A DNA stretch of 64,000 nucleotides from a bacterium (GTDB lineage: Bacteria > UBA10199 > JAIBAG01): NCBI GenBank assembly GCA_019695305.1, contig JAIBAG010000013.1:6339-70338 (forward strand), given 5' to 3'. The stretch's first letter is position 1, and the number at the start of each line of letters is the position of its first letter. Below the pieces are notes generated by a model, which saw nothing but the letters and a program-made list of their open reading frames with translations, was not told the DNA's origin and did not search any database. Of the stretch, positions 2,064 through 21,741 are shown piece after piece. A program made the position numbers and the translations under genes.

Positions 2064-2151
2064 TTTAATCCTTTTCTGGTCTTGACAGTGAGTGTTTCAC
2101 TTGGTATCACGTAAGCCATTCTAAATAATAGGTTTTTATATTTTTGTAAAC

Positions 2152-2307
2152 CTAGATCTTATCCAGAGTGACTGAGGGATTGGCCCGATGACGTCACAGC
2201 AACCGCTTCCTCAAAATTAGGAAGGCCTGGTGCTAATTCCAACCCTGTACGGGTTAAGATAAGAAGAGCTGTTTGATAACCTCTTCTTAGCGAAGAGGTT
2301 TTTTTTT
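2152..2307 (+). promoter_or_regulatory. SAM-I (S-box) riboswitch: aptamer at about 2152-2266 plus a terminator/antiterminator expression platform.
   Basis: The sequence reads aucuuAUCCAGAGUGACUGAGGGAUUGGCCCGAUGACGUCACAGCAACC...GGUGCUAAUUCCAACCC...GAUAAGAAG. This contains the S-box hallmarks: P1 CUUAUC/GAUAAG, GAGGGA...GGCCCGAUGA (kink-turn/pseudoknot), GCAACC and GGUGCUAAUUCC. The 3' P1 strand AAGAAGAG can alternatively pair with CTCTTCTT of the downstream terminator. Confidence 0.85.
2280..2307 (+). terminator. Intrinsic terminator of the S-box expression platform (CCTCTTC tta gc GAAGAGG + T9)
   Basis: GC-rich hairpin followed by TTTTTTTTT, immediately before the ATG at 2308. Confidence 0.8.
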
Positions 2308-3243
2308 ATGCAGGTTTTTGACGACATTTTAAAAACGGTAGGGAATACACCAGTTCTTTCGCTAGACCGTTTGACTAGTCCTAACGCTGCGTCTCTTTTT
2401 GGCAAGTTCGAAGCGGCTAACCCCAGTTTATCGGTAAAAGACCGCACGGCCTTAGCGATGATTGAAAAAGCCGAGGCGGATGGACTTATCAAAAAAGATA
2501 CGCAAATTGTAGCCGCCACTGCGGGTAATACGGGTGTGGCGCTGGCCATGGTGTGTGCGGTTAAAAAATATCCTCTTGTTTTATTTATGCCCGAAGATGC
2601 GAGTCTGGAGCGTCGCAAAATGTTTGAAGCTTTTGGGGCTACTCTTCACCTGACTTCTAAAAATGATGGGGTGAGCGGGGCCGTGAAGGCTGCTGAAGAA
2701 TTTAAGGCTAAAAATAAAAATACTTTTGATCCCAAACAGTTTGAAAACCCCGCTGCTGTGGAAGCTCATCGTCGTGCCACGGCTCAGGAGATACTTGCTG
2801 ATTTCCCGGATGGTTTAGATGCCTTAGTGGTAGGTGTAGGAACAGCCGCCACCATTACAGGCGTGGGTGAAGAGTTAAAAAAGAAATTTCCGTCACTCCG
2901 TGTGATCGCTGTAGAGCCCCAGAGCTCGGCCGTGTTATCGGGCGGGGTTGCAGGTTCGCATCGTATTCAGCAATTGGGCCATGGTTTTATTCCTAAAAAT
3001 TATAATCCCAAAATTGTGGAGAAGATCATCCAAGTATCCGATGCCGATGCCTACACAACAACCAAACGTCTTTCACGTCAGATGGGGCTGCTTCTGGGCT
3101 TGTCCTCGGGAGCCAATGTTTTTGCAGCTCTGCAAGTGGCAGAAAAATTGGGAAAAGGAAAAAAGGTACTCACGTTTTTATGTGATGCGGGTCAGCGCTA
3201 TTTCAGTATCGAAAAGTTTTTTACGAAAGGAACAACTGTATGA
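2308..3243 (+). CDS. Cysteine synthase / cystathionine-beta-synthase family, PLP fold type II (CysK-like)
   Basis: 311 aa. It carries the PLP-lysine motif SVKDR, the GNTG glycine loop and overall CysK/CysM similarity. It is the first gene downstream of the S-box. Confidence 0.85.
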   Translation: MQVFDDILKTVGNTPVLSLDRLTSPNAASLFGKFEAANPSLSVKDRTALAMIEKAEADGLIKKDTQIVAATAGNTGVALAMVCAVKKYPLVLFMPEDASLERRKMFEAFGATLHLTSKNDGVSGAVKAAEEFKAKNKNTFDPKQFENPAAVEAHRRATAQEILADFPDGLDALVVGVGTAATITGVGEELKKKFPSLRVIAVEPQSSAVLSGGVAGSHRIQQLGHGFIPKNYNPKIVEKIIQVSDADAYTTTKRLSRQMGLLLGLSSGANVFAALQVAEKLGKGKKVLTFLCDAGQRYFSIEKFFTKGTTV

Positions 3244-4475
3244 GTTATGCACGTGGTTTAAAATGTCGCGAATGCGGCCATGAGTATCCTAAAACACCCA
3301 CACATGTGTGTGAGTTTTGTTTTGGACCTCTCGAAGTGGTTTATGACTATGACAAAATTAAAGGTGTTTTAACACGCGATGTAATCACCTCACGCCTCCC
3401 AAACATGTGGCGCTATAAAGAGCTTCTGCCTATTGATAACGATCCCACCGTGGGTAAGCAAGTGGGTTACACACCGCTACGCCGGGCTAATCGCCTGGCT
3501 AAAGTTTTGGGTGTGGACGAACTCTATATTAAAAACGATGCGGTTAATTATCCTACCTTATCTTTCAAAGACCGTGTGGTGTCTGTAGCCTTATCCAAAG
3601 CTAAAGAATTTGGTTTTAAGACCGTGGCCTGTGCTTCTACAGGCAACTTGGCTAACTCGGTGGCTGCTAATGCGGCTGCGGCCGATCTGGATAGTTTCGT
3701 TTTTATCCCGTACGATCTCGAAGCCACCAAAGTAATGGGCACTATGATATACGGTACTAACCTGGTAGGTATTAAAGGCACGTATGATGAAGTGAATCGC
3801 TTGTGCAGCGAAATTGGCAACCAGTACAAATGGGCTTTTGTGAACATCAACATGCGCCCGTATTACGCCGAAGGTTCTAAATCGATGGGTTATGAAATTG
3901 TAGAACAATTGGGATGGAAAACGCCACAACACGTGGTGGTACCCATGGCCAGTGGTTCGCTTTTAACCAAAATTGATAAATCGTTTAAGGAAATGGAAAA
4001 GATCGGTCTTATTTCCGAAAATAACGCCAAAATTTATGGTGCTCAGCCTACGGGTTGTTCGCCCATTTCTACGGCCGTTAAAAATAAATGGGAAATCTTT
4101 AAGCCGGTTAAACCCAACACGCTGGTGAAATCACTCGCAATCGGAAACCCGGCCGACGGTTTTTATGCCGCGCGTTCCATGGCCGAAACACAGGGATGGA
4201 GTGAAGATGTGACGGATGATGAAGTGGTAGATGCGATCCGGCTCCTCGCCGAAAGCGAAGGAATTTTTGCCGAAACTGCTGGTGGTGTTACCGTGGGTGT
4301 GGCCAAAAAACTGATTGAGCAGGGAAGAATCCCGCGCAATGAATCCATCGTGCTGTGTATTACCGGTAACGGTTTAAAAACACAGGAAGTAGTGGTGGAT
4401 CGTTTAGGGAAACCTCCCGTGATTGATCCTAAAATTGGTGCTTTTAACGAATTTATGGGTAGTATTAAGAAATAA
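3240..4475 (+). CDS. Threonine-synthase-family PLP enzyme with an N-terminal CxxC...CxxC zinc ribbon. This is ThrC itself or an MA1821-like ThrC homolog used for sulfide-dependent homocysteine synthesis.
   Basis: 411 aa. It begins MSYARGLKCRECGHEY...CEFC and has the LSFKDR PLP-lysine motif. It overlaps the upstream gene by 4 nt and sits inside a SAM-riboswitch operon next to a NIL-domain gene. Confidence 0.8.
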   Translation: MSYARGLKCRECGHEYPKTPTHVCEFCFGPLEVVYDYDKIKGVLTRDVITSRLPNMWRYKELLPIDNDPTVGKQVGYTPLRRANRLAKVLGVDELYIKNDAVNYPTLSFKDRVVSVALSKAKEFGFKTVACASTGNLANSVAANAAAADLDSFVFIPYDLEATKVMGTMIYGTNLVGIKGTYDEVNRLCSEIGNQYKWAFVNINMRPYYAEGSKSMGYEIVEQLGWKTPQHVVVPMASGSLLTKIDKSFKEMEKIGLISENNAKIYGAQPTGCSPISTAVKNKWEIFKPVKPNTLVKSLAIGNPADGFYAARSMAETQGWSEDVTDDEVVDAIRLLAESEGIFAETAGGVTVGVAKKLIEQGRIPRNESIVLCITGNGLKTQEVVVDRLGKPPVIDPKIGAFNEFMGSIKK

Positions 4476-4499
4476 CTTACAAACAATAGGAGAGCATTT

Positions 4500-4751
4500 A
4501 TGAGCAAAGTTGTAGAACGCAAAGTGTATTTAACATTCCCCGAAAAACAAACCAAAGAAGCAATTATTTGCGATATGTACGATAAGTTTAAAGTGCGCTT
4601 TAACATTCGTTCAGCCTCAGTAAATTCGCAAGTAGGCTTGATGGCCGTACTCCTTGAAGGGCCGGATGATAAAGTGGTGGAAGCGATGAAATACTTCCGT
4701 GAACGCGGCGTTCAAGTTGAGCCGATCGAAATGAATGTGATCGAAGGCTAA
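4500..4751 (+). CDS. Small NIL-domain protein (MA1822-like, without a ferredoxin domain)
   Basis: 83 aa. The ...SQVGLMAVLLEGPDDKVVEAMKYFRERGVQVEPIE pattern resembles the NIL domain found at MetN C-termini. A good RBS (AGGAGAG) precedes the ATG. Confidence 0.5.
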   Translation: MSKVVERKVYLTFPEKQTKEAIICDMYDKFKVRFNIRSASVNSQVGLMAVLLEGPDDKVVEAMKYFRERGVQVEPIEMNVIEG

Positions 4752-4752
4752 C

Positions 4753-5643
4753 TTGATTATCAACTCCATCCTAGACCGCATCGGCAATACGCCGCTCGTT
4801 AAAATTCGGGAAATCACCAAAGATTTACCGAAAGGGGTGGAGGTGTATGCGAAGCTCGAATATTTTAACCCGGGTGGTTCGGTAAAAGATCGTGCGGCGT
4901 ACCGCATGATTCAGGAAGGCTTAAAAAGCGGCAAACTTACCAGGGGAAAAACGATTATGGATCCTACCTCGGGTAATACCGGTGTAGCGTATTCCATGAT
5001 TGGGGCAGCGTTAGGATATCCCGTAGAATTGGTGATGCCTAAAAACGTATCGCAGCAGCGTAAAGATATTGCCGAATCGTTTGGGGCCAGCATTACTTTT
5101 AGTAGCCCTTTTGAAGGGTCGGATGGGGCGATACGTTTGGCGCACAAATTGTACGCCGAAAACCCCGAAAAATATTTCATGCCCGATCAGTACAATAACC
5201 CGTTTAACCCGCAAGCGCATGTGGACACAACAGCTCCCGAAATTTGGAATCAGACTCATCACAAGGTAACACATTTTGTAGCGACGATGGGAACCAGCGG
5301 TACAGCCATGGGAACTACCCGTGGTTTAAAGGCTTTTAATAAAAATATTGTATGCTATGGTGCCCAGCCGGCGCACTCGTTACACGGCTTGGAAGGTTTA
5401 AAGCACATGCCCTCATCCATTGTGCCGGGAATTTATAACGAAAGTAGTCTCGACCATGTGCTGTGGATGGAAACTGAAGAAAGTTATGACATGGTAGACC
5501 GTTTGGGGCGTGAAGAAGGGATTATTGTCGGTTACTCCAGTGGTGCTGCCATGCTGGCGGCTTTAAATGTAGCCAAAACTTTAAAGAGTGGCGTGGTGGT
5601 GACAATTTTTGCCGATCATGGAGATCGGTATTTTGAATTGTAG
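4753..5643 (+). CDS. cysM: Cysteine synthase family, CysM-like (candidate sulfur-carrier-dependent sulfhydrylase)
   Basis: 296 aa. It has GSVKDR, SGNTG and a fold-II PLP signature. The start is TTG at 4753, directly after the upstream stop. It is followed by JAMM protease and ThiS-like carrier genes, as in the mec-cysO-cysM clusters. Confidence 0.8.
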   Translation: MIINSILDRIGNTPLVKIREITKDLPKGVEVYAKLEYFNPGGSVKDRAAYRMIQEGLKSGKLTRGKTIMDPTSGNTGVAYSMIGAALGYPVELVMPKNVSQQRKDIAESFGASITFSSPFEGSDGAIRLAHKLYAENPEKYFMPDQYNNPFNPQAHVDTTAPEIWNQTHHKVTHFVATMGTSGTAMGTTRGLKAFNKNIVCYGAQPAHSLHGLEGLKHMPSSIVPGIYNESSLDHVLWMETEESYDMVDRLGREEGIIVGYSSGAAMLAALNVAKTLKSGVVVTIFADHGDRYFEL

Positions 5644-5653
5644 TTTGCATGGA

Positions 5654-5807
5654 AAAGCTTTAGGCATGTTCTTTTTTATTTCAAGACACACTTACGACTG
5701 GGACGACCCAGTCGACGCTCCGCTGTTGCCAATTGGAGCTATTTATCCCGATTGTTCCAATTGACAACAGAGGGTCTTAAAATAAAAAAGAACACACCTA
5801 AAGCTTT
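5654..5807. repeat. Nested inverted-repeat element. The outer arms are ~32 bp (AAAGCTTTAGGCATGTTCTTTTTTATTTCAAG vs rc AAAGCTTTAGGTGTGTTCTTTTTTATTTTAAG). They flank a ~90-bp core with inner palindromes (CTGGGacgaCCCAG; GTTGCCAATTGG...CCAATTGaCAAC).
   Basis: Read directly from the sequence. It occupies the whole cysM-like/JAMM intergenic region. Confidence 0.6.
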
Positions 5808-5824
5808 AAGAGTTTTATTTAGAT

Positions 5825-6289
5825 ATGATTAAGATTGAAGAAAAATTATTAAACGAAATTTACGCCGAAGCAGAAAAAACTTATCCCAATGAAGGTTGCG
5901 GCTTTGTGTTGGGCACGGTAGACGGTGGCCGCAACGCTGTGCAGTTTATTGCTGTTGAAAATATTCAAGATAAGCTTCATGCGCAGGATCCCAAGCGTTA
6001 TCCGCGTGAAGCCAAAACGGCTTATGCGATTGATCCTAAAGCGATGGAAGCTATCGAAAAAGACGCCAAGGCCAAGGGTTTAAGTATTATCAGTATTTTT
6101 CATTCGCATCCCGAACATGGTGTTTATTTTTCGGATGAAGATAAGGGGATGGCAGCACCCTGGGGTGAGCCTCTTTTCCCTCATTTGTCGTATCTGGTGG
6201 TATCGGTGTATAGCGGCAAAGTGAAAAATTCGTCCGAGTTTTTGTGGAGTACTGACAAAAAAGATTTTGTAGAACATACAATTTTGTAA
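5825..6289 (+). CDS. JAMM/MPN+ (Mov34) zinc metalloprotease, Mec+/CysO-processing type
   Basis: 154 aa. It carries EGCGFVLG and the JAMM motif HSHPEHGVYFSDED (H-x-H-x7-S-x2-D). Confidence 0.8.
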   Translation: MIKIEEKLLNEIYAEAEKTYPNEGCGFVLGTVDGGRNAVQFIAVENIQDKLHAQDPKRYPREAKTAYAIDPKAMEAIEKDAKAKGLSIISIFHSHPEHGVYFSDEDKGMAAPWGEPLFPHLSYLVVSVYSGKVKNSSEFLWSTDKKDFVEHTIL

Positions 6290-6362
6290 GGCGTGGCGTC
6301 AGTGACGCTCTTTGTGATTCTTTTGCGATTCACGATGAGCGATCAGCGATTCACGAGTCAAT

Positions 6363-6641
6363 ATGGCAATCAAAGTAAGAATTCCTACTCCTTTGCAAAC
6401 CTTAACGGCTAACCAAAGTGAAGTATCGGTAGATGGTAAAAATGTAGCGGACGTGCTTGCCGCTTTGGAAAAGCAATTTGGTGGTTTCCGTCAACGTTTG
6501 TACGACGATGCCGGTGCATTACGCCGCTTTGTTAATTTTTACGTGAATGATGAAGATATCCGTTTTTTAGACGGTGATAAAACTGCTCTGAAAGACGGTG
6601 ATGAGTTAAGTATCGTTCCTGCTATTGCCGGCGGTATATAA
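6363..6641 (+). CDS. ThiS/MoaD/CysO-like sulfur-carrier protein with a C-terminal GG followed by one extra residue (…VPAIAGGI)
   Basis: 92 aa. It has a beta-grasp carrier-like C-terminus, ...GDELSIVPAIAGG-I. The extra residue after Gly-Gly implies proteolytic maturation by the adjacent JAMM protease. Confidence 0.7.
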   Translation: MAIKVRIPTPLQTLTANQSEVSVDGKNVADVLAALEKQFGGFRQRLYDDAGALRRFVNFYVNDEDIRFLDGDKTALKDGDELSIVPAIAGGI

Positions 6642-6643
6642 AG

Positions 6644-6997
6644 ATGTCACAAATTGTTTATCTCATTGGCCCTAACCGCTATTCAACCGAGGGTCTTCAC
6701 TGGTGTTTACACAAAGCCAAAGAAGGCAGTAAAGCCTTGCGTGTGGTTTACGCGGGTGGGGACGATGAGGCGCTATTAGCTGAAATTGACAAGCAGGGGG
6801 CAACGTTTGCGCATAAAATTGAAATTCAAAAATTAAATGCTAACTATCTGGCTGCGTGTGAGCAGGCGGCTCAATTTCCTGATACTGTTTTGTTGGTATT
6901 GGTAGCTTTAAAGAAGAGTTTCATGGGTAAACTTTTTGGGACTGACGAGTTTGAAGTTCTTAAGGGCAAGATTAACTGCGAATTAAAAATATATTAA
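6644..6997 (+). CDS. Hypothetical 117-aa protein, translationally coupled to the carrier gene. Possibly DsrE/DsrF/TusBCD-like fold (tentative).
   Basis: The N-terminal pattern IVYLIGPNRYSTEGLHWCLHKAKEG...RVVYAGGD resembles the DsrE-family N-terminus. There is a 2-nt gap from the upstream stop. No confident family call is possible by eye. Confidence 0.45.
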   Translation: MSQIVYLIGPNRYSTEGLHWCLHKAKEGSKALRVVYAGGDDEALLAEIDKQGATFAHKIEIQKLNANYLAACEQAAQFPDTVLLVLVALKKSFMGKLFGTDEFEVLKGKINCELKIY

Positions 6998-7004
6998 AAC
7001 TGCG

Positions 7005-7763
7005 TCAGCCATCCGTGTTATCGGTAGCATTCACATGCAGTCCACATTCTTTTTTATCAGGGTCATTCTGGTTAAACCAGCGCCAGCGCCCGGCGCGGCG
7101 GGGTTCGTGTGGACCAATAGGGGTGGTGCATAAAATGCATCCCAGCGATTCGTAATACCAGCCATTTTCATTCCAGCTTAACAGCTTGTGCATGGGTACT
7201 TTGTATTTGGCAATGTAATCGCGCAAATCTTTCTCGGTCCAGTTAAACAGAGGGGCAATTTTTAAAATAGGTTTTCCTGTGGGACCTGTAATAATCTGGA
7301 ACTTTTTGCCATCGGCGCGCGTGGCTGATTGATCGCTTCTTAAACCGGTAATCCATACATCTAAAGTTTCCAAAACTCTATTATTGGGTTCTACTTTACG
7401 TAAGTGGCAGCAAAATTTTTGTTTGTCGGGCGTGTCAAAAAACAAATACTCACCGTGCTGCTTAATCATCCGGTCTATTTTAACGGGGTCTGGTTTTATT
7501 TTTTCAATTTTGATTTTGTATTTCTTTTCTATTTTGCCAAATAGTTCGTAAGTTTCCGGAAAGAGACGAAGTGTATCAATGGTAAAAATACGAGGTTTGA
7601 TTTTGGCGCGGACAGCAAGATCAATCAGCGCAACGCCTGTGAGTTGACCGCTGGTACCAATAGCCGCCCGTTTTTTAAAGCGCTTGAATACCTCCTTTAA
7701 GAGGGCGCTGGTATCGTTGATTTGTTCCAGTTCGGCAATCAGTTGTTCGTTAATTGCGGTCAT
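7005..7763 (-). CDS. cysH: Assimilatory adenylyl-sulfate / phosphoadenylyl-sulfate reductase (thioredoxin-dependent, Fe-S type)
   Basis: 252 aa. It has the C-terminal ECGLH motif plus a CC...CxxC cysteine set (KFCCHLRK, SLGCILCT) typical of [4Fe-4S] APS reductases. Confidence 0.85.
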   Translation of the reverse strand: MTAINEQLIAELEQINDTSALLKEVFKRFKKRAAIGTSGQLTGVALIDLAVRAKIKPRIFTIDTLRLFPETYELFGKIEKKYKIKIEKIKPDPVKIDRMIKQHGEYLFFDTPDKQKFCCHLRKVEPNNRVLETLDVWITGLRSDQSATRADGKKFQIITGPTGKPILKIAPLFNWTEKDLRDYIAKYKVPMHKLLSWNENGWYYESLGCILCTTPIGPHEPRRAGRWRWFNQNDPDKKECGLHVNATDNTDG

Positions 7764-7772
7764 GTTGTGAAG

Positions 7773-7865
7773 AGTAACCCCCTCCCGTCCTCCCCCTTAA
7801 TTTAAGTGGGAGGGGCTAAGAAAGTCCTCCTCCCTTAAATTAAGGGAGGAGACAGAGGTGGGTTA
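7773..7865. repeat. MITE-like palindromic repeat element, copy A (second copy at 48934-49025). Termini are GAGTAACC...GGGTTAC. There are two internal CCCCCTTAAnTTAAGGGGG-type palindromes.
   Basis: It shares ~80% identity over ~90 bp with 48934-49025. It lies between the cysH start and the cysC stop. The cysC TAA stop codon is within the terminal GGGTTAC. Confidence 0.8.
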
Positions 7866-8462
7866 CACAATCTTATTCTTTTTCAGCATTTCAATTACGG
7901 CCTTTGCACACTCCTCAATACTCAACTGCGCTGTTTCCAAATTAAGTTCCGGTTTTAACGGTTCTTCGTAAGGAGACGAAATGCCGGTAAAATCTTTAAT
8001 CTCTCCCTTGCGTGCTTTTTGGTAAAGGCCTTTAGGGTCTCGTTTTTCACATTCTTCGATGGGTGTATTTACAAAAATTTCAAAAAAATGACCTTGCGGA
8101 ATAATGGCCCGCACATCATCGCGGTTTTTTCTAAAAGGCGAGATGAGCGAAACGAGAGTAATCACATTGGCATCACAAAAAAGTTTGGCTACTTCGCCCA
8201 CGCGACGTATATTTTCGGATCTGCTTTTATCATCAAAACTCAAATCTTTATTAAGCCCATGGCGCAAATTATCACCATCTATTACGTAGGCGTGAAAACC
8301 TTGGGTTATAAGAGCTTTTTCTACACTTGATGCAATGGTGGATTTGCCAGAGCCCGATAAACCTGTAAACCAAAGGACGGCTCCTTTTTGTTTTAAACTT
8401 TTAGAGCGCTCTTCAGCATTTACATGGCCCTGATGCCAAACGATATTGGTGGACTTAGACAT
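7863..8462 (-). CDS. cysC: Adenylyl-sulfate (APS) kinase
   Basis: The sequence reads MSKSTNIVWHQGHV...GAVLWFTGLSGSGKSTIA (P-loop) ...DGDNLRHGLNKDL. I moved the start to the internal Met (ATG rc at 8460-8462), because the ORF-track start at 8588 would overlap cinA. Confidence 0.85.
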   Translation of the reverse strand: MSKSTNIVWHQGHVNAEERSKSLKQKGAVLWFTGLSGSGKSTIASSVEKALITQGFHAYVIDGDNLRHGLNKDLSFDDKSRSENIRRVGEVAKLFCDANVITLVSLISPFRKNRDDVRAIIPQGHFFEIFVNTPIEECEKRDPKGLYQKARKGEIKDFTGISSPYEEPLKPELNLETAQLSIEECAKAVIEMLKKNKIV

Positions 8463-8523
8463 TGGTCTTCTTTCTAATTCTTTCGTATTGAGAGTGTCAA
8501 ACACATTTGTTACAAGTGTTTTT

Positions 8524-9777
8524 ATGCAAGCTGAAATTATCACAGTAGGTGATGAAATTGTTTCCGGTAATATAGTAGATACTAACAAGGCCTATTTGTC
8601 CGATAAGCTATGGGCTGGTGGAATCAAAGTAGTATGGCATACCTCGGTGCGGGATGACGCGGCCGATATTAAGGCGGCTTTATTGCTTGCTAATCAGCGT
8701 GCTGATATTGTTTTAGTTTCTGGTGGGTTGGGGCCTACAGCTGATGATTTTACCTTAGAAATAGCCGCTAAAACTTTTCGTAAAAAAATGGTGAGGCATC
8801 AGCCTACCTTAAACCGTTTAGAAACCCTCATGAAAAAGCTGGGGCGAACACTGCACGAAAATAATAAGAAACAAGCAGATGTTCCTGAAGGCGCTGATGT
8901 TTTTGACAATAAATGGGGTACGGCGCCGGGTATTGGTATTACCTTTAAAAAGAAACGATATTATTTTTTACCGGGCGTACCACGTGAAATGAAGCAGCTT
9001 TTTGAAGATTCTGTTTTCGCGGAAATTATTCAAAATAATCCCGATAAAAAAATCTTTGTGAGTAAATTCCTCAAATGTTTTGGCACCAGTGAGGCCGATT
9101 TAGATTTGGCTCTTAAAGAACTCTATTCGGGAGTAACCGAAATTAACAATGTGCGTGTGGGCTTTAGAGCGCAGTTTCCCGAAACCACCATTAAACTTTC
9201 GGCCTGGGACAAAACAGAAGAAAATGCCGTTCAGGCCTTAGCGGCAGTTGAAGATCAAGTTCGTCAAAAAATAGGGGAGGCTATTTACGGTGAAGGTGAG
9301 GATACGCTTGAAAAAGTGGTAGGTGAACTTTTGAATAAAAGTAAAAAAACTTTAGCCCTGGCCGAATCGTGCACGGGTGGGCTTATTGCCAGCCGCGTTA
9401 CCAATGTGCCCGGATCAAGCGCTTATTTTTTAGGTGGTGCAGTAAGTTATAGTAATGAATCTAAAGTAAAACTTTTAGGTGTGAGCGAGGCCACACTTAA
9501 AACCCATGGCGCGGTAAGCAGCCAGTGTGCCATTGAAATGGCTCAAGGCATTCGTCGCCAATTAAAAAGTGATTATGGTATTGCGGTAACCGGAATTGCT
9601 GGGCCTAGTGGCGGCTCTGTTGCTAAACCTGTGGGTACGGTTTATGTGGCACTTGCTAGCCCCAACGGAACCAAAGAAAAACTGTTTAATTTTCCGCGTA
9701 ACCGCGACATGTTTAAGCTTTTAGTGAGCTCCATCGCCTTGAATTGGTTGAGAAAGGAGCTTATCGTGGTTCGCTGA
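8524..9777 (+). CDS. cinA: CinA-family protein (competence/damage-inducible protein A; NMN deamidase PncC domain)
   Basis: It has the MoCF-binding N-domain (MQAEIITVGDEIVSGNIVDTN) and a C-terminal CinA domain (LALAESCTGGLIA...YFLGG). The start was chosen at ATG 8524. Confidence 0.8.
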   Translation: MQAEIITVGDEIVSGNIVDTNKAYLSDKLWAGGIKVVWHTSVRDDAADIKAALLLANQRADIVLVSGGLGPTADDFTLEIAAKTFRKKMVRHQPTLNRLETLMKKLGRTLHENNKKQADVPEGADVFDNKWGTAPGIGITFKKKRYYFLPGVPREMKQLFEDSVFAEIIQNNPDKKIFVSKFLKCFGTSEADLDLALKELYSGVTEINNVRVGFRAQFPETTIKLSAWDKTEENAVQALAAVEDQVRQKIGEAIYGEGEDTLEKVVGELLNKSKKTLALAESCTGGLIASRVTNVPGSSAYFLGGAVSYSNESKVKLLGVSEATLKTHGAVSSQCAIEMAQGIRRQLKSDYGIAVTGIAGPSGGSVAKPVGTVYVALASPNGTKEKLFNFPRNRDMFKLLVSSIALNWLRKELIVVR

Positions 9778-11564: not shown

Positions 11565-14321
11565 ATGAAAAGGGCGTTGCTTGTATTTTTTGTTGTCGCT
11601 TTTTTTGTTCCCTCCTTAGTTTTTGCCGAAGATCTGGCTATTTATGTCACCAACAATTTCGATAATACGGTATCAGTCATTGACCCTGCCACTGATACGG
11701 TGACGGATACGATTAACGTGGGTACTGGCCCCCGAGGTGTAGCGGTGTTGCCGGATGCGAGTGCTGTGTATGTGGCCAATAATGGAAGTAACAATGTTTC
11801 GGTGATTGATCCAACGGATAATACAGAGGTAGATACAATTTCTGTGGGGGCCGAACCTGATTCGGTGGTGGCAAACCCTAATAGTACCACCGTGTATGTG
11901 ACCAACAATGGAGATAACTCGGTATCTATTATTGATGTTGAATCAGGTACTGTTACCGATACGGTGCTAGTGGGAAATTCCCCTCGTGGTTTGGCGATTA
12001 CTCCTGATGGTGCTTTTTTATATGTGGCCAATACCGCAAGCGATTCAGTGTCGGTGGTGGATTTATCCGATAATAGTGTTTCTTCCATCAATATAGGAGG
12101 CGGTTCTTTTCCTATTAACGTTACTATTAGCCATGACGGTGCTTTTGCTTATGTGAGCGAATTTTTGGGTTCGGATGTAGATAAGATTGATACGTCTAAC
12201 AATACTATTGTTGATTCGGCACTCTCAGGTTTTGAAACTTTTAGCACCGTTATCACAAACGATGATGGCTTGGTATATGCTGTTGATGCCGCGAGCCAAG
12301 AAGTTGATTTAATCACGACAGATCCCATGACACTTGAAGATAATGTGTCTGTGGGTGCTTTTCCGCGTTATGGAGCTCTCAATGAAGACGAAACAAAGCT
12401 TTATGTTACCGAGAGTGATAATGCTACGGTGGGTATTGTAAATACCGATACTTTGGTGCGCACATCTGTGGCTGTTGGTCTTACACCTTATGGTATTGCT
12501 ATTTTACGTGATGTTTCTGCTGGTGCAGGGGCTTTAACGGTAACCATCACAACTCCCTTTGATGCTAATATCACGGCGTCTGGCGAAGTGACGCCCGACC
12601 GATCTTTTTCTTATCAGGTTGTTGTTGCCAATACAGGCGGGGCAGATTTGGACGATACACAATTAGTGCTTACCAGTGGCCCCTATACAATGGTTGGTGG
12701 CAGAATTCATATGGAAGAAAATCAAATTTATGAATTAAGCGGTGACGCTGGAACTTCTACATCTACTATTACATGTACGGAGAGCGGCGCAAAAATACTT
12801 ACTTGTGATATTGGAACCTTAACTGCGGGAGATACCCGTTATTTTAAAGTGGCGATGCATGTAGGCGATTTAACCAGTGGAGAAGTGGATGATGATTTTA
12901 CGGCAACGGCCACGTCGGATTCTATCACGGCTAACGATAGTTCAACCCTTACTACGCTGGGTGCTGGTTATTCATCGGGGTGTGCTTTTAACATAGCGGG
13001 TAACCGCCTTTTTGACGGGAGTCGCGAAATGAAAAATACTTTATTATTATTCTCTTTTCTTATTATGCCTGTTTTAATTTTACGTTGGCGTAGGGCAAAA
13101 ATATTTTTATCTCTTTTATTACTTATCTTTCTTTATAGTGCTCCGTCTATAGCTTCTACAAGCCGTTTTTCGGTTAATCCCGATGCGCCCACTCTGGGGA
13201 GTAGCGGTATTATTTATACTTTGGGAGCCAAAGCACCCCAAAAGCCGTATCATTTTAGCTTTGATACCGAATACGGGTATAATCATGCCAAAGTACAAGG
13301 TGTGACCGATGGCATTGTTACTCATTTAGTGACGCATTATTTAGGTTTTGGTTTTTATCCCAAGCAAAAACTGGGCATTGATGTAGTTGTTCCCGTTTTA
13401 TCGGTGAACCAAATTCATTTAATAAATCATGATGGCAATAAACCCGGAATAGGGGATATAACCGTGCGTGGACGTATTCCTCTGGTAAAAAGTAAAAGTG
13501 GCAAAACAAATTTTGCCATCATTCCTTACATGAGTATACCCACGGGTAACGATCAGTATTTTGTATCCGATAAATATCCTCGTGGCGGGCTAGTGGGTGC
13601 GCTTGATTGGGAAATGGGAGAGAAATGGTATTCGGCCATTAACTTGGGTTTTGAGGCGCGGCAGAGTATTGATTCGAGAAATTTTAATGAAAAAGGTCGT
13701 GCTTTAGGACGTATTGGAACAGCTTACGCTGTTTCTAAACAGGTAAAAGTAAAAGCCGATTTAGTAGGAGCAACCGCGGTCAATAAACCTTTTAAAGATC
13801 AACCGGCAACGGTGCTTGAAGCTATGGGTGGTGTTGAGATTGATTTAAAAAATCATCCCGTTTCTTTTAACGTAAACGCCGGTGGACCTTTGGTGCGTGG
13901 GGCTACTTCGCCCAGCTTTAGAGCTGATGCCGGTGTGACTGTTGGTTGGGGGAAGGGCGAAAAAGGGCTTGGAAAAGCGGAACTTAAAGCGTTGCAGCCC
14001 ACACTTTATTTTAATTCGGCCTCGGCAAAAATTGGTAAAGACGACCAGGCCAAATTAAATCAGGTGGCTGCTCTCTTAAAGCAATACCCCAAGATTAAAT
14101 TAATGGTAGCCGAAGGTCATACCGATAATAAAGGTTCATCCAGGGTGAATCAAAAGTTATCTGTTAAACGTGCAACGGCAGTTAAAAATTATTTGGTAAA
14201 ACAAAAAATTGCCTCTAACCGCATTGAGGTGACAGGTTTTGCTGATACTAAACCGGTAGCCAGCAATAATACCGATAAGGGGCGTGCTCAAAATCGTCGT
14301 GTTGAGTTAAGGGTAAAGTAA
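11565..14321 (+). CDS. Large surface/outer-membrane protein. Order of parts: signal peptide, YVTN beta-propeller repeats, DUF11-like domain, internal TM-RWRRAK-TM hairpin, beta-barrel region, C-terminal OmpA peptidoglycan-binding domain.
   Basis: 918 aa. The N-terminus is MKRALLVFFVVAFFVPSLVFA. There are repeated ~40-aa units (YVTNN..N.VSVID..T.TVTDTI.VG..P.G.A). The C-terminus reads ...LMVAEGHTDNKGS...NQKLSVKRA..V..YL....I...R.EVTGFADTKP...N.....NRRVELRV (OmpA_C). Confidence 0.7.
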   Translation: MKRALLVFFVVAFFVPSLVFAEDLAIYVTNNFDNTVSVIDPATDTVTDTINVGTGPRGVAVLPDASAVYVANNGSNNVSVIDPTDNTEVDTISVGAEPDSVVANPNSTTVYVTNNGDNSVSIIDVESGTVTDTVLVGNSPRGLAITPDGAFLYVANTASDSVSVVDLSDNSVSSINIGGGSFPINVTISHDGAFAYVSEFLGSDVDKIDTSNNTIVDSALSGFETFSTVITNDDGLVYAVDAASQEVDLITTDPMTLEDNVSVGAFPRYGALNEDETKLYVTESDNATVGIVNTDTLVRTSVAVGLTPYGIAILRDVSAGAGALTVTITTPFDANITASGEVTPDRSFSYQVVVANTGGADLDDTQLVLTSGPYTMVGGRIHMEENQIYELSGDAGTSTSTITCTESGAKILTCDIGTLTAGDTRYFKVAMHVGDLTSGEVDDDFTATATSDSITANDSSTLTTLGAGYSSGCAFNIAGNRLFDGSREMKNTLLLFSFLIMPVLILRWRRAKIFLSLLLLIFLYSAPSIASTSRFSVNPDAPTLGSSGIIYTLGAKAPQKPYHFSFDTEYGYNHAKVQGVTDGIVTHLVTHYLGFGFYPKQKLGIDVVVPVLSVNQIHLINHDGNKPGIGDITVRGRIPLVKSKSGKTNFAIIPYMSIPTGNDQYFVSDKYPRGGLVGALDWEMGEKWYSAINLGFEARQSIDSRNFNEKGRALGRIGTAYAVSKQVKVKADLVGATAVNKPFKDQPATVLEAMGGVEIDLKNHPVSFNVNAGGPLVRGATSPSFRADAGVTVGWGKGEKGLGKAELKALQPTLYFNSASAKIGKDDQAKLNQVAALLKQYPKIKLMVAEGHTDNKGSSRVNQKLSVKRATAVKNYLVKQKIASNRIEVTGFADTKPVASNNTDKGRAQNRRVELRVK

Positions 14322-14353
14322 ATTATTTATGTGTTTAAAATAGAGGGAGAACT

Positions 14354-17146
14354 ATGCGTTTGAAATTCTTGTTTGTTTTTTTTGTGTGTCTTGTTTGTAG
14401 TTTATTCACCCATTCAGTTAAAAGTTGGGCCGATGATTTAGGCCTCTATGTAGGCGATACTGCCCTTGGCGTGGTTACAGTGTTTGATCCGGAATCGGAT
14501 ACAGCGACCGATACAATTGATGTGGGAGACGAACCCAAAGGTATTGTGGCCTTGCCCGATGCCAGCGCTTTGTATGTAGCCAATAGTTTAACCAGTGATG
14601 TGTCGGTGATTGACCCAACCGACAATACGGTGAGTGCTACCATTGACGTAGGTATAGCCCCCGAGCAACTAGTGGCTACTCCCGATAGTTCTACTGTTTA
14701 TGTAACTTGCTCCATTGATGATATTGTTTATGTAATCGACACAGCAAGTAATACCGTTACCGATACAATTGCTGTAGGTAATTCGCCCGTTGGTATTGCT
14801 ATTAACCCGGCCGGAACAAAAGTGTATGTGGGTAATTCAGCTGACAGCACCATTTCGGTAATTGATACTTCTAGTAATACGGTTACTGCTACCATCACCT
14901 TGCCAGGTGGTTCCAGCCCGCTTAATTTGTTGGTGAATCATGCGGGCACTATTCTTTATTCTTCCAACAATGGAACAGCGGATATTACGGAGATTAGCAC
15001 CTCTAACAACACTATTAGTACAACTATTGAAGTGGGAGTTTTTCCATTAGGGTTGGTATTAAATGACGATGATAGTCTTTTATTTGTACTCAATTCGGGA
15101 GATAACGATATCGATGTCATATCAACAGCTACACGCACTATCGTTGAAACCATCGCTGTAGGTAATTTTCCGCGCCAGGCTATTTTAAATGAAGATGAAA
15201 CTAAACTTTATTTAACCGAGGATGCTTCCGGAACCTTAGGGATCATCAGTGTTGATGGACTCACTCACACTACGGTGGCTGCGGGTAACCAGCCATATGG
15301 CATTGCCATGTTGCACTTTAATAACACTCCCACTTTAACAGTTGCGGTCAGCACCTATCTCTCCGAGCTCTACAAAGCAGGGCTGGCAAAAATGGGAACT
15401 AAATTCCACTATCAGGTGGCCATCAGTAATACAGGGGAGTTCGATTCACTCAATACCATATTACGTCTTTATACGCCTGACGAACATCGTGGAAACGGAA
15501 ATATTTTGCGTGAGAATGATACACTTGAAATCTTAGATGGTGATGCAGGCACTGTAACAGGAACGATAGCTTGCACACCCACCTCCGACAATTTGACCAT
15601 TATTTGTGATATTGGAACGATAGACGCAGGCAGTACCGTGTATTTTAGAATTAATATGAGGGTGGGATTTTATAACGACAATGGTGCTACGTATCAAAGA
15701 TACTTCAATACTTTTTATGCCACGGTTGCAAATCCTGATATCGACGAAATAGACACCGACATTACGTTTACAACTGCGGTGGATCCTACTTATCCCGATT
15801 GCACCTGCCATGTTGACCCAAGCCGGCAGTTTGATGTGGGCCAGGAAATAAAAAATACTCTGCTCATGCTTGCTTTCCTTGTTTTGCCGCTCTTTGCTCT
15901 GCGTTTACGCAAAGGCAAAATGCTGCTTTCTCTAGTGCTGATGTTTTTGCTTTATAACTCCAGTTCTATGGCGGCAACGGACCAATTTTCGGTAAATCCC
16001 GATGCCCCTGTTTTGGGTTCTCCGGGTATTATTTATACCTTGGGAGCTAAAAAACCCACATCGCCCTATACTTTTTCGTTTGATACTCAGTATGGGTACA
16101 ATCATTTAAAATGGAGCGGTGTGAGTAAGGGACTTATCAACCACCTGGTTACCCATAATTTGGGTTTTAGTTTTTCTCCCAAACAAAAACTGGGGCTCGA
16201 TGTGATTGTGCCTATTGTATCGGTCAATAAACGATTAGCCCCATCGCTTTCAACTTATGCCAACAAAGCCACGTTAGGCGATGTTTTGTTACGAGGGCAT
16301 ATTCCTGTTGCTCATAGCCAGAGTGGTAAAACTCATTTTGCACTGGTGCCGTATCTCACTATTCCCACCGGTATGGAAAAATATTATGTGGCCGATAAAT
16401 ATCCCCGTGGCGGGCTTATTGGAGCCCTCGATTGGGAAATGGGCGACAAATGGTATTCGGCTTTAAACGTGGGTGTAGAAGCGCGGCAAAGTGTTAGCTA
16501 TAGCAATTACAACCAGAAGGGGCGTATTTTAGGCAGTATCGGTTCGGCCTATGCTGTATCCAAACAAGTAAAACTGAAAGTGGATCTGGTAGGCTCAACG
16601 GCCATCAACAAACCCTTAACACATCAGGTAAGCTCTCCGCTTGAGGCGATGGGTGGCGTGGATGTGGAACTTAAAAATCATCCGGTTAGTTTTAATGTAA
16701 GCGGCGGTGTTCCCTTGGTGCGCGGCGCTACATCGCCTACGTTTAGAGCCGATGCGGGTGTGACCGTTGGCTGGGGGAAGGGCGAAAAAGGTTTAGGACG
16801 TGATGCTTTGCGTGCCTTGCAACCCACCATTTATTTTGCCAGCAACTCGTCTAAAATTTCTAAAGACGATAAGGCAAAACTGGATACGGTGGTTTCACTT
16901 TTAAAACAAAATCCAAAAGTAAAATTAATTGTAGCTGAAGGGCATACCGATAATACGGGTACGCACAAGGCCAATCAAAAATTATCGTTGGGCCGGGCTA
17001 ATGCGGTTAAAAAATATTTAACGGGTAAGGGGATTACGCCTTTGCGTATTGAAGTAAGCGGTTTTGCCGATACAAAACCTGCTGTTTCTAATTCTAATGA
17101 TACAGGCAAAGCTAAAAACCGTCGGGTGGAACTGAGAGTGCGCTAG
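14354..17146 (+). CDS. Paralog of the upstream gene, with the same YVTN beta-propeller/DUF11-like, TM hairpin, beta-barrel and OmpA_C architecture
   Basis: 930 aa. The C-terminal half is collinear with 11565-14321 (FSVNPDAP.LGS.GIIYTLGAK...KYPRGGL.GALDWEMG.KWYSA.N.G.EARQS...VELRV). The N-terminal half has divergent YVTN repeats. Confidence 0.7.
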   Translation: MRLKFLFVFFVCLVCSLFTHSVKSWADDLGLYVGDTALGVVTVFDPESDTATDTIDVGDEPKGIVALPDASALYVANSLTSDVSVIDPTDNTVSATIDVGIAPEQLVATPDSSTVYVTCSIDDIVYVIDTASNTVTDTIAVGNSPVGIAINPAGTKVYVGNSADSTISVIDTSSNTVTATITLPGGSSPLNLLVNHAGTILYSSNNGTADITEISTSNNTISTTIEVGVFPLGLVLNDDDSLLFVLNSGDNDIDVISTATRTIVETIAVGNFPRQAILNEDETKLYLTEDASGTLGIISVDGLTHTTVAAGNQPYGIAMLHFNNTPTLTVAVSTYLSELYKAGLAKMGTKFHYQVAISNTGEFDSLNTILRLYTPDEHRGNGNILRENDTLEILDGDAGTVTGTIACTPTSDNLTIICDIGTIDAGSTVYFRINMRVGFYNDNGATYQRYFNTFYATVANPDIDEIDTDITFTTAVDPTYPDCTCHVDPSRQFDVGQEIKNTLLMLAFLVLPLFALRLRKGKMLLSLVLMFLLYNSSSMAATDQFSVNPDAPVLGSPGIIYTLGAKKPTSPYTFSFDTQYGYNHLKWSGVSKGLINHLVTHNLGFSFSPKQKLGLDVIVPIVSVNKRLAPSLSTYANKATLGDVLLRGHIPVAHSQSGKTHFALVPYLTIPTGMEKYYVADKYPRGGLIGALDWEMGDKWYSALNVGVEARQSVSYSNYNQKGRILGSIGSAYAVSKQVKLKVDLVGSTAINKPLTHQVSSPLEAMGGVDVELKNHPVSFNVSGGVPLVRGATSPTFRADAGVTVGWGKGEKGLGRDALRALQPTIYFASNSSKISKDDKAKLDTVVSLLKQNPKVKLIVAEGHTDNTGTHKANQKLSLGRANAVKKYLTGKGITPLRIEVSGFADTKPAVSNSNDTGKAKNRRVELRVR

Positions 17147-17215
17147 TCCGACTTGTCTGACGAGTCCGACGCGTCGGACCTGTCGGACTCAGAATCGGAC
17201 TCTGAAGAATTTTTC
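17147..17215. repeat. Array of five GTC(N)GAC-containing 9-mers followed by TGAAGAA. A second copy lies in-frame inside the downstream gene at 17634-17700.
   Basis: gtccgacttgtctgacgagtccgacgcgtcggacctgtcggac...tctgaagaa (17150-17212) compared with gtccgacctgtcagacccgtcggacaagtctgacttgtctgacaagattttgaagaa (17637-17691). Confidence 0.6.
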
Positions 17216-17289
17216 TAAAAACACTTCCTTTAAAATTCAAAGAGTTATCGTTTTGTGCTTTTTGGCATAAGCTTTGCTTTAGCCAAAGC

Positions 17290-17853
17290 ATGAACGAAGC
17301 ACCCAAACTTATTTCTGTCCATGGTGGTTATCGCAACTTGCGGAGCTTTCAGTGTGCCCAATTGGTTTACGATAATACGGTAATTTTTTGTAACCGTTTG
17401 GTAAGTAAGTATTCGCGTACTCACGATCAAATGGTGCAAGCCGCGCGGAGTGGGGTGCAGAATATTGCCGAAGCCAGTATGGCTTCGGGAATTTCTAAAA
17501 AAACGGAATTAAAATTAACCGGTGTGGCCCGCGCCAGCCTAGAAGAACTCTTGCTCGATTACGAAGATTTTTTAAGACAAAATAGTTTGCGCTTGTGGGG
17601 TAAGAACGAAGAAAAAACTCTTCAAGTCCGAAAGTTTTTGTCCGACCTGTCAGACCCGTCGGACAAGTCTGACTTGTCTGACAAGATTTTGAAGAAAACT
17701 CCGGAAGTGGCAGCCAATATTTTAATTTGTTTAACTCACCAAAGTATTTACCTGTTAAGGCAACAGCTCAAACATTTAGAACTCAAATTTCTTAAAGAAG
17801 GAGGTTTTACCGAAAAACTGTATCAGGTACGTTCTCGGGCGCGGCATTTTTAG
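17290..17853 (+). CDS. Four-helix-bundle protein (TIGR02436 / 23S-rRNA-IVS / Avd-like family) with a C-terminal extension and an LSDLSDPSDKSDLSDK repeat insertion
   Basis: The DQMVQAARSGVQNIAEAS...GVARASLEELLLDYEDFL pattern matches the four-helix-bundle family. The repeat insertion is encoded by the 9-mer array. Confidence 0.5.
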   Translation: MNEAPKLISVHGGYRNLRSFQCAQLVYDNTVIFCNRLVSKYSRTHDQMVQAARSGVQNIAEASMASGISKKTELKLTGVARASLEELLLDYEDFLRQNSLRLWGKNEEKTLQVRKFLSDLSDPSDKSDLSDKILKKTPEVAANILICLTHQSIYLLRQQLKHLELKFLKEGGFTEKLYQVRSRARHF

Positions 17854-18398
17854 CGCCACTTAATAGAACAGCCCATGGAAGGTTTTTGATTGCTAGTGAT
17901 AGCTTTGCCCTCTTTTAACGCCAGCATCGCATTGCGCAGTTCTTGCACTTGCACTTTTTCGGGTTCTTTCCAGTTGTCATCCAAACGGCCGTGGTAAACG
18001 AGTTTTCCGGTAGGGTCCAGCAAATACAAATCGGGTGTGCATTGGGCTTTGTAACTTTGCGCTACCTGTTGGCTTTCATCTATTAAGTACGGAAATTTTA
18101 TTCCCCATTCTTTAATTTTGATTTTCATTTTATCGGGAGCATCATCGGGATAGTTGGGGTGGATATTGGGATTGATGCCCACGGTGTTAATGCCCCAGGT
18201 TTTGGCTTCATCCGCAAGCTTAATCAAACGAGGCCAAATAGCGATAGCGTAGGGGCAGTGGTTACAAGTGAAAGCAACCAGCAAGCCTTTGGGGCCATTT
18301 ATGCTAGCACTATTATAGAGAGCACCATCGGGTGAGGGCAGGTTAAATGCCGGCATGGTTGTGCCTAAGGGGATGTCTAATGATTCAACTAAAGCCAT
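17850..18398 (-). CDS. Thioredoxin-fold thiol-disulfide oxidoreductase (AhpC/TSA-like family)
   Basis: 182 aa. It has the CNHC redox motif in a thioredoxin-like context (LLVAFTCNHCPYA). Confidence 0.7.
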   Translation of the reverse strand: MALVESLDIPLGTTMPAFNLPSPDGALYNSASINGPKGLLVAFTCNHCPYAIAIWPRLIKLADEAKTWGINTVGINPNIHPNYPDDAPDKMKIKIKEWGIKFPYLIDESQQVAQSYKAQCTPDLYLLDPTGKLVYHGRLDDNWKEPEKVQVQELRNAMLALKEGKAITSNQKPSMGCSIKWR

Positions 18399-18510
18399 AA
18401 AAACCTCTTTTTTATTTTTTTTAAAAAAAGTCTTGCAATGTGAACTGAGCCTGCTTCATAAAAAGTAAATCACGGAAGAATTACTTAACATAACGAAAGG
18501 AAAAAACAAT

Positions 18511-19587: not shown

Positions 19588-19656
19588 GTTTGGCACCCAT
19601 GGATTGTCCCGCTTCTTGTAGGGGTCGACTTTGGTGTCGCCCCTACGAGAGGTCTC

Positions 19657-21605: not shown

Positions 21606-21741
21606 GTCCTTCAGGTTATAATTAAAGCAAGATTAATACCAAAAGGCACAATATTAACTATATGATATTATTGTATATTTTAAATTTAGAACTTGAAAAA
21701 TAAAGAGATTTTGGTGTGTGGATACCCAAGGCTGGGGAGTA

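Follow-up and report, generated by a model that had tools for sequence, protein, structure and literature searches.

To which amino acid does a protein-bound sulfur carrier deliver its sulfur when its gene lies in one operon with relatives of threonine synthase and of cysteine synthase, all behind a riboswitch for S-adenosylmethionine (SAM)? The question is raised by positions 2152-6997 of a 64,000-nucleotide stretch of DNA (the window; assembly GCA_019695305.1, contig JAIBAG010000013.1, positions 6,339 to 70,338) from a bacterium of the lineage UBA10199. There, a SAM-I riboswitch precedes genes for a CysK-type enzyme, a ThrC-like pyridoxal-phosphate (PLP) enzyme, a small stand-alone NIL-domain protein, a CysM-like enzyme, a JAMM protease, a ThiS/MoaD-type carrier and a Usp-like protein. 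A preliminary description of this DNA saw two systems joined in the operon, a sulfide-dependent homocysteine route and a protein-thiocarboxylate module, and proposed that the carrier feeds methionine synthesis. The second idea is supported here, as the ThrC-like/carrier pair under a SAM riboswitch resembles the MetM/MetO pair described below. The first has to be given up, as the NIL gene travels with the ThrC-like and ThiS genes with or without CysM and JAMM genes, and is fused to ThiS once. The locus is probably one SAM-repressed sulfur amino-acid operon that depends on a single carrier-thiocarboxylate system, of the MetM/MetO type for homocysteine.

In Streptomyces albulus, MetM, a threonine-synthase homolog "often misannotated as such", makes homocysteine from O-phosphohomoserine at the expense of thiocarboxylated MetO, its carrier protein, and is helped by the JAMM protease Mec and the activating enzyme (E1) MoeZ (Hasebe et al. 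2024, as summarized in bioRxiv 10.1101/2024.10.14.618325); a SAM riboswitch lies upstream of metM (PMC12172450). We propose that the ThrC-like protein of the window is likewise a carrier-thiocarboxylate-dependent homocysteine synthase of the MetM type, a proposal drawn from its sequence and context.

The leader RNA points to methionine as the regulated end. The SAM-I (S-box) aptamer at 2156-2265 on the plus strand matches the full RF00162 model (1-108) with 79.2 bits, against a gathering score of 44.4, and an E-value of 5.6e-17, as the preliminary description had anticipated. An intrinsic terminator follows at 2278-2307, with a 9-bp GC-rich stem and a 5-nt loop in the hairpin 2278-2300 and a T-run through 2307. 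A putative antiterminator helix at 2260-2289 was deduced from the sequence, in which 2260-2268 pairs with 2281-2289 (-10.1 kcal/mol in a ViennaRNA fold of 2256-2290); it overlaps the 3' strand of P1 and the 5' arm of the terminator, and thus competes with both. For the first gene, the sole Shine-Dalgarno-like sequence is a GAGG at 2295-2298, 9 nt ahead of the start codon (ATG at 2308) and within the terminator's 3' arm; in the OFF state, the ribosome-binding site would therefore be masked as well. The leader is thus predicted to be a conventional terminator/antiterminator switch, as had been suggested previously. At high SAM levels, the aptamer would lock P1, the terminator would form and the buried ribosome-binding site would keep the operon off; at low SAM levels, the antiterminator would form and all seven genes would be transcribed. 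A weak sigma-70-like sequence upstream of the leader (2101-2129, plus strand, 9/12 consensus match) is a promoter candidate only, as sigma-70-like sites in this region are fewer than in shuffled sequence.

The genes that consistently accompany NIL were defined by comparison across genomes. A pattern scan based on the NIL alignment, with one genome per GTDB species, yielded 55 loci, all in metagenome-assembled genomes (MAGs), to which the window proteins were mapped by tblastn. Linkage was counted in the 33 species-representative loci in which the NIL gene is flanked by 4 kb or more in both directions, 16 of them in a close group (NIL at least 61% identical; depositors' labels include UBA10199, Deltaproteobacteria, Myxococcota and Nitrospiraceae) and 17 more distant. 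The carrier gene is found in 32 of these loci (close, 16/16; distant, 16/17) and the ThrC-like gene in 30 (16/16 and 14/17). CysM is near NIL in 16/16 close and 7/17 distant loci, JAB (the JAMM gene) in 16/16 and 1/17, and CysK in 12/16 and 0/17, while E1 genes are near NIL in 0/16 and 8/17, respectively. The genes that stay together are thus those for the ThrC-like enzyme, the carrier and NIL; CysM, JAMM and CysK are lineage-specific, and E1 moves in and out. Rfam scans of 33 cassette loci placed a SAM-I riboswitch ahead of the first gene, in the same orientation, in 29 of them, across several lineages.

The gene order differs between lineages. In the close group, it is [CysK]-ThrC-like-NIL-CysM-JAB-ThiS, often followed by a gene for a Usp-like protein, a variant radical-SAM protein, a Na/sulfate symporter or ATP sulfurylase. 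MAGs labelled Binatia, Thermodesulfobacteriota or "delta" have riboswitch-E1-ThrC-like-ThiS-CysM-NIL-radical SAM, and Tepidisphaerales/Phycisphaerae (Planctomycetota) have riboswitch-ThrC-like-ThiS-NIL, sometimes with a ThiF-type E1 gene directly after; in these planctomycetal cassettes, no CysM or JAB gene was found within 10 kb. In six Tepidisphaerales loci (L042-L044, L046, L048 and L051), the ThrC-like, ThiS and NIL genes are being parted by unrelated genes, for a glycosyltransferase, an FAD oxidoreductase and a ribulose-phosphate epimerase, and in L044 NIL stands alone. The variant radical-SAM gene (NF045502, cutoff 125) immediately follows the carrier or NIL gene in about 15 loci, often with the Na/sulfate symporter and ATP sulfurylase genes behind it, and is absent from the window; it scores 130.5 bits in L040 (10788-11945) and 91.9 bits in L001 (13175-14350).

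The carrier itself (6363-6641, plus strand, 92 aa; PF02597, 64.7 bits) ends in PAIAGG-I, and its best match in the PDB is M. tuberculosis CysO (3dwg_C, E 1e-20), the carrier that M. tuberculosis CysM uses together with O-phosphoserine (PMC12910592). The JAMM/MPN+ metalloprotease (5825-6289, plus strand, 154 aa; Prok-JAB, 71.8 bits) resembles Mec and HcyD, and its metal site is intact, E23 and HSHPEHGVYFSDED being readable as the E...HxHx7Sx2D motif. The set of a CysO-like carrier, a JAMM protease and a CysM-like enzyme recognized in the preliminary description is thus present. Residues beyond the Gly-Gly are found in 32 of 34 carriers from loci that contain JAB and in 11 of 18 carriers without JAB nearby. 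A strict rule by which JAMM and such an extended carrier would each occur only with the other was rejected as only partly true, given those 11 carriers without JAB.

Two loci contain carrier fusions. In L057 (9659-11050), the carrier runs through its Gly-Gly into NIL in one open reading frame (ORF; ThiS-GG-V-PDRSGKV-NIL), directly followed by a ThiF-family E1 gene and preceded by a JAB gene; this fusion occurs in a single MAG and might be an assembly error. In L032 (11634-13055 of CP064976.1, a complete MAG chromosome), the carrier is fused in frame after Gly-Gly to a full-length ATP sulfurylase, and the locus also encodes JAB; in other loci, the carrier and ATP sulfurylase genes are adjacent but separate. 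In Deinococcus, a JAMM protease is reported to cleave a MoaD-MoaE fusion (PMC8832034).

A carrier of this kind would be adenylated by an E1, and the window appears to have none. Neither an E1 nor a sulfite reductase nor an ATP sulfurylase came up in Pfam scans of window ORFs of at least 150 aa (except three ORFs of 918-1308 aa at 11565-25668), and three E1 sequences used as tblastn queries had no match anywhere in the 64 kb, in agreement with the preliminary description as to E1 and sulfite reductase. The variant pathway that had been suggested on this ground does not follow, as relatives carry a ThiF-type E1 in the same operon: a ThiF-family gene is inside the operon in 11 of the 55 NIL loci and in 8 of the 33 well-flanked ones. 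In L040, for example, it separates the riboswitch from the ThrC-like gene, and in L057 and L059 it comes immediately after NIL. Of MoeZ-type profiles, these in-operon E1s match the adenylation part alone, with no rhodanese domain found. In Wolinella, free bisulfide reportedly supplies the sulfur to the adenylated carrier. In M. tuberculosis, the E1 MoeZ is unlinked to the CysO/CysM/Mec+ cluster; by analogy, an E1 would be used in this family and would simply be unlinked in the clade of the window.

These data bear on the possibility that the ThrC-like enzyme makes homocysteine from free sulfide, or from O-phosphohomoserine and cysteine, with the carrier serving only CysM or another thio-cofactor and NIL acting as a methionine-sensing regulator. 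The genes for CysK and the ThrC-like enzyme are translationally coupled, the start of the latter overlapping the stop of the former (ATGA), and are adjacent without a carrier gene in locus L005; the window, moreover, lacks an E1 gene. However, ThiS adjoins the ThrC-like gene in operons devoid of CysM, E1 is encoded in the same transcription unit in relatives, and the Streptomyces route, as summarized in the preprint cited above, uses MetO, the E1 MoeZ and a MetO-thiocarboxylate-dependent MetM acting on O-phosphohomoserine. We thus consider a carrier-independent homocysteine synthase unlikely.

The MetM-type reading also requires that the ThrC-like protein differ from threonine synthase. This protein (3240-4475, plus strand, 411 aa) is a PALP-family enzyme with an N-terminal CxxC...CxxC ribbon and the PLP-lysine motif SFKDR. 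More than 120 cluster representatives, all metagenomic, are at least 71% identical to it, and an exhaustive HMMER search yielded full-length relatives at 40-56% identity, one of which led to homologs in Micromonosporaceae. In Micromonospora coriariae (L006), a ThrC-like gene whose product is 51% identical to the window protein lies directly behind a SAM riboswitch. In Nonomuraea gerenzanensis, the gene behind a SAM riboswitch (L062, 4825-4966) encodes a ThrC-like protein with 53% identity to that of the window. A ThiS-like gene starts 24 nt after its stop; the 91-aa product ends in GG and shares 47% identity with the window carrier. Elsewhere, this genome has a canonical thrC, whose product is 58% identical to the ThrC of a Brevibacillus hom-thrC-thrB cluster and 32% identical to the window protein, and thus holds both paralogs. 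The record concerned (NZ_LT559118.1; L062 and L064; 11.85 Mb, with 10 annotated features) is entered in PLSDB as a plasmid and is evidently a chromosome, given housekeeping genes such as groEL and thrC.

The identity between the window protein and canonical ThrC proteins is only 32-35%. In a neighbour-joining tree, the window protein, every NIL-linked ThrC-like protein and the two actinomycete riboswitch-linked ThrC-like proteins form one clade, which a long branch parts from two canonical ThrCs; the grouping with bona fide threonine synthases that the preliminary description had allowed for is thus not seen. By these sequence comparisons, the ThrC-like protein appears to be a paralog distinct from the housekeeping threonine synthase, in a context of sulfur metabolism under a SAM riboswitch. 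Two other assignments were rejected. Cysteate synthase, a ThrC-like enzyme of the coenzyme M pathway, gave 65 bits against a TIGR03844 cutoff of 324.9, and the N-terminal Zn-ribbon is unsuitable as a MetM marker, as several "threonine synthase" profiles of NCBIfam align with the query from its very first residues and thus seem to cover the ribbon region.

Could the ThrC-like protein nevertheless be the real threonine synthase of the organism, merely co-transcribed with a carrier, a JAMM protease and a CysM that make only cysteine, as in M. tuberculosis? It passes the NCBIfam threonine-synthase cutoff (TIGR00260, 276 bits against 167) and all sources annotate it as such. In addition, in vitro assays of a MetM homolog from a cyanobacterium showed threonine synthase and deaminase activity (PMC12172450), and L005 has a gene for a 72% identical protein without the carrier cassette. 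That gene, with a CysK-like gene upstream (L005, 3506-5753), lies between folP and bamE/hisS, and no riboswitch, NIL, CysM, JAB or carrier gene was found within 10 kb; because of this copy, the ThrC-like clade is not always cassette-linked. Against this possibility stand the separation of the clade from canonical ThrC, the genome with both paralogs, SAM-riboswitch control conserved from Actinomycetota to Planctomycetota and the ThrC-like/ThiS/NIL operons without any CysM. Also, with threonine synthase repressed at high SAM levels, more O-phosphohomoserine would be channelled into methionine, contrary to what feedback control should achieve. A threonine synthase in this position is therefore improbable.

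The third constant member, NIL, is the least understood. The gene (4500-4751, plus strand) encodes 83 aa, and residues 9-74 match PF09383 with 58 bits against a cutoff of 24, bearing out the earlier assignment of this short ORF. Its 112 stand-alone homologs (75-112 aa, at least 59% identity) are very strongly conserved; at residue 51 (4650-4652), the Glu present in 110 of 113 homologs is replaced by Leu in the window protein (LLEG, not ELEG). Among solved structures, the family profile matches only MetN C2 domains (3dhx, E 0.005). An AlphaFold (AF2) model with a pLDDT of 75 has a beta-alpha-beta-beta-alpha-beta fold, for which Foldseek finds MetN C2 as the best match (TM 0.72-0.78; 3tui_C, 0.78), followed by ACT and PII-like domains. 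In a profile alignment, the invariant Asn35 aligns with E. coli MetN Asn295, the substitution of which (N295A) reduces L-methionine binding to an undetectable level (PMC6233128).

As actinomycete MetM/MetO loci are without NIL, the protein would be inessential to the core chemistry, and its fusion to ThiS in L057 suggests a physical or stoichiometric link between NIL and the carrier. NIL is most likely a conserved accessory outside the core chemistry, binding either a small ligand (methionine or homocysteine) or the enzyme/carrier pair. A ligand-sensing regulator is the likeliest role, at somewhat short of even odds; an adaptor is possible, with less in its favour, and a sulfur relay is doubtful. 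The role of NIL is the weakest part of the overall model. Full-text literature searches found no paper that ties NIL to ThiS-type carriers or ThrC-like enzymes, and a classic survey of ThiS/JAB/E1 neighbourhoods mentions neither NIL nor threonine synthase; NIL is thus an undescribed third partner of the ThrC-like/carrier pair. More speculatively, it may be an unrecognized required subunit of a carrier-thiocarboxylate homocysteine synthase, acting as a methionine- or homocysteine-sensing brake, or as a carrier-docking adaptor where the E1 has no rhodanese domain. If so, NIL would be a methionine/homocysteine-recognition module common to three systems with no other relationship (the DUF39 and MetM/MetO pathways and the MetN importer), and would define a distinct NIL-dependent pathway subtype, with one carrier for homocysteine and cysteine, in several uncultured phyla.

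The relay function deserves separate consideration, as NIL might be a persulfide protein that replaces the rhodanese domain absent from in-operon E1s and passes sulfur to the adenylated carrier. In favour of this, all of 113 close homologs retain Cys24, the E1s match the adenylation part only, and an NIL-ferredoxin protein takes part in sulfur incorporation in methanogens. However, Cys24 is replaced by Tyr or Trp in Binatia-type and Planctomycetota NILs, no Cys is common to the family, and both the fold and the key Asn match the ligand-binding MetN C2 domain. A persulfide carrier was thus rejected as the main model and is very improbable.

Two independent systems, a methanogen-type sulfide-dependent homocysteine route of ThrC-like enzyme plus NIL and a CysO/JAMM/CysM thiocarboxylate module, are the least credible explanation of the locus. 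In its favour, NIL domains do occur in MA1822, some sources name stand-alone NILs "L-aspartate semialdehyde sulfurtransferase ferredoxin" or "FeS-binding protein", and the genes for CysM, JAB and ThiS follow each other much as in the M. tuberculosis cluster. However, MA1821 belongs to DUF39/COG1900 and is not a ThrC homolog, and MA1822 combines NIL with ferredoxin domains (PMC5764234), so that ThrC plus NIL is not the MA1821/MA1822 signature it was taken for. In addition, no DUF39/COG1900 and no ferredoxin (Fer4) domain was detected in the operon or in other scanned window ORFs, the window NIL consists of the NIL domain alone, and NIL accompanies ThiS even where CysM and JAB are missing and is fused to it in L057.

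For the CysM-like enzyme (4753-5643, plus strand, 296 aa), whose TTG start lies 1 nt after the NIL stop, the TIGR01138 score is 357 bits, below the cutoff of 394. Its best PDB matches are Salmonella/E. coli CysM (234 bits), against 172 bits for M. tuberculosis CysM (Rv1336). Enterobacterial CysM uses free sulfide or thiosulfate. Judged solely from the position of its gene between NIL and JAB-ThiS, the CysM-like enzyme probably uses the carrier. CysK (2308-3243, plus strand, 311 aa; PALP, 231 bits) exceeds the TIGR01139 cutoff (358.5 against 350.95 bits), its best PDB matches are cysteine synthases, and by score it appears to be an ordinary cysteine synthase A (O-acetylserine sulfhydrylase).

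The analysis shows the RNA family and its expression platform, the protein families, the paralog clade, the linkage across phyla, the E1 genes in the operons of relatives and the ThiS-NIL fusion, whereas the substrates, the carrier-using enzymes, the two JAMM roles and the function of NIL are proposals. The JAMM protease would trim the residue after the carrier Gly-Gly, an E1 of the ThiF/MoeB type encoded elsewhere in the genome would adenylate the trimmed carrier, and the carrier would be turned into a thiocarboxylate. The ThrC-like enzyme would then replace the phosphate of O-phosphohomoserine by using this thiocarboxylate, yielding homocysteine. The CysM-like enzyme probably makes cysteine with the same carrier, the JAMM protease probably also frees the amino acid from the carrier adduct, and CysK would add an ordinary sulfide route to cysteine. 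NIL, a small domain similar to MetN C2, would most likely tune or scaffold the enzyme-carrier step, via a ligand (methionine or homocysteine) or as an adaptor.

Several observations weigh against this model, in addition to the threonine-synthase score, the in vitro activity of the cyanobacterial homolog and the solitary copy in L005 described above. Membership of the ThrC-like protein in the MetM type is argued from context and from 51-53% identity to actinomycete homologs that are themselves uncharacterised, and every relative of the window clade is a MAG. Four of the 33 scanned cassette loci have no detectable riboswitch. The CysM-like enzyme is nearer to enterobacterial CysM than to the carrier-dependent CysM of M. 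tuberculosis. As for NIL, none was found within 5-6 kb in the actinomycete MetM/MetO-type loci, Asn35 is Asp in the Planctomycetota homologs, and the whole family has no conserved Cys.

The operon comprises seven plus-strand genes, not eight as first counted (seven had been listed), and the domain calls made for their products hold by Pfam and TIGRFAM profile scores. The genes overlap or are separated by a few bases except for 182 nt before the JAMM gene and 73 nt before the carrier gene. The final codons of the CysM-like gene contain a hairpin and T-run (5610-5630), after which comes the 182-nt AT-rich gap; the region 5610-5824 may hold an internal attenuator or a further promoter and so divide the operon into two units of expression. 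The last gene (6644-6997, plus strand, 117 aa) has no direct family match; its product shares 40% identity (E 1e-33) with the protein at the same position in L003, which matches PF00582 Usp with 26.7 bits against a cutoff of 24. This divergent Usp-like protein, found only in the closest relatives, is a lineage-specific accessory.

Outside the operon lie a cysH-type gene for (P)APS reductase (7005-7763; PAPS_reduct, 113.6 bits; NF002537, 193.6 bits against a cutoff of 154) and, upstream of it, cysC for APS (adenosine phosphosulfate) kinase (7863-8588; APS_kinase, 225 bits). Both are on the minus strand, convergent with the operon and not divergent from it as previously described, with 7 nt between the stop codons. 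The cysH product has the cysteine motifs KFCCH and GCILC, which are typical of Fe-S APS reductases, yet the gene adjoins cysC. In relatives, a gene for a CysQ-like inositol phosphatase also adjoins; together, the adjacent APS kinase and CysQ-like genes suggest that PAPS (phosphoadenosine phosphosulfate) is made. The longest ORFs of cysC and of cinA (8446-9777, plus strand) overlap head to head by about 140 nt. Because the APS_kinase domain begins at residue 68 of the former and the first CinA domain (MoCF_biosynth) at residue 30 of the latter, the true starts are probably internal (cysC Met43 at about 8462 and cinA at about 8527), with a short divergent promoter region between them.

The thiocarboxylate-dependent MetM/MetO pathway was already known (2024); what is new is the NIL partner that travels with it in several uncultured phyla. 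The chief value of these findings lies in NIL, in the natural fusions and in the correction of widespread annotations: every ThrC-like homolog named by its source is a "threonine synthase", and NIL is called "FeS-binding protein" or "methionine ABC transporter ATPase". Corrected names change the predictions of methionine prototrophy for UBA10199-labelled MAGs, Tepidisphaerales/Phycisphaerae and Binatia-type lineages. The reach of the MetM/MetO pathway would be extended far past actinomycetes, to a richer form with one carrier, two PLP enzymes, a JAMM protease and sometimes an in-operon E1. The 83-aa NIL, carrier-fused in one genome, is directly testable and may illuminate the role of NIL in the DUF39/NIL-ferredoxin pathway. 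The natural ThiS-NIL and ThiS-ATP-sulfurylase fusions, with JAMM encoded at the same locus, would be further examples of the processing of prokaryotic ubiquitin-like precursors.

Like the MetM/MetO system of S. albulus, the window operon places a ThrC-homologous PLP enzyme beside a ThiS/MoaD-type carrier under a SAM riboswitch, with JAMM (Mec in Streptomyces) as a helper; an E1, the other helper, would be encoded elsewhere in the genome. Unlike that system, it adds genes for NIL, a CysM-like enzyme, CysK, JAMM and a Usp-like protein, and a single carrier, which has an extra residue after Gly-Gly, is encoded alongside two candidate PLP enzymes. The E1s of related operons are ThiF/MoeB-like, with no rhodanese domain found, and the hosts are uncultured (MAGs labelled UBA10199, Deltaproteobacteria or Myxococcota and, more distantly, Planctomycetota, Binatia or Thermodesulfobacteriota). 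Like the CysO/CysM/Mec+/MoeZ system of M. tuberculosis, the operon clusters a CysO-like carrier, JAMM and a CysM-family enzyme, but unlike that cysteine pathway, it is controlled by a SAM riboswitch, and the constant partners of the carrier across lineages are the ThrC-like enzyme and NIL.

In Wolinella succinogenes, the HcyS/HcyD/HcyF/MetY system, attributed to Krishnamoorthy and Begley (2011), reportedly uses a JAMM-trimmed carrier thiocarboxylate for homocysteine and has sulfate-assimilation genes nearby; neither NIL nor a SAM riboswitch is known to have been reported for the HcyS/HcyD system. The window shares with it a carrier with an extra C-terminal residue, a JAMM protease and sulfate-assimilation genes in the vicinity, whereas the PLP enzyme there is reportedly MetY, of fold type I and acting on O-acetylhomoserine, and the ThrC-like enzyme of the window is of fold type II. 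Like the DUF39 plus NIL-ferredoxin pathway of methanogens and Desulfovibrio, the operon links an NIL domain with a non-canonical homocysteine route, but that pathway starts from aspartate semialdehyde and proceeds without a carrier protein. Lastly, the window NIL shares the fold of the MetN C2 (NIL) domain, with which its NI[RIL]SA motif aligns, including the Asn whose replacement abolishes L-methionine binding; unlike this transporter domain, to which it is about 20% identical, it is a free protein encoded in a biosynthetic operon.

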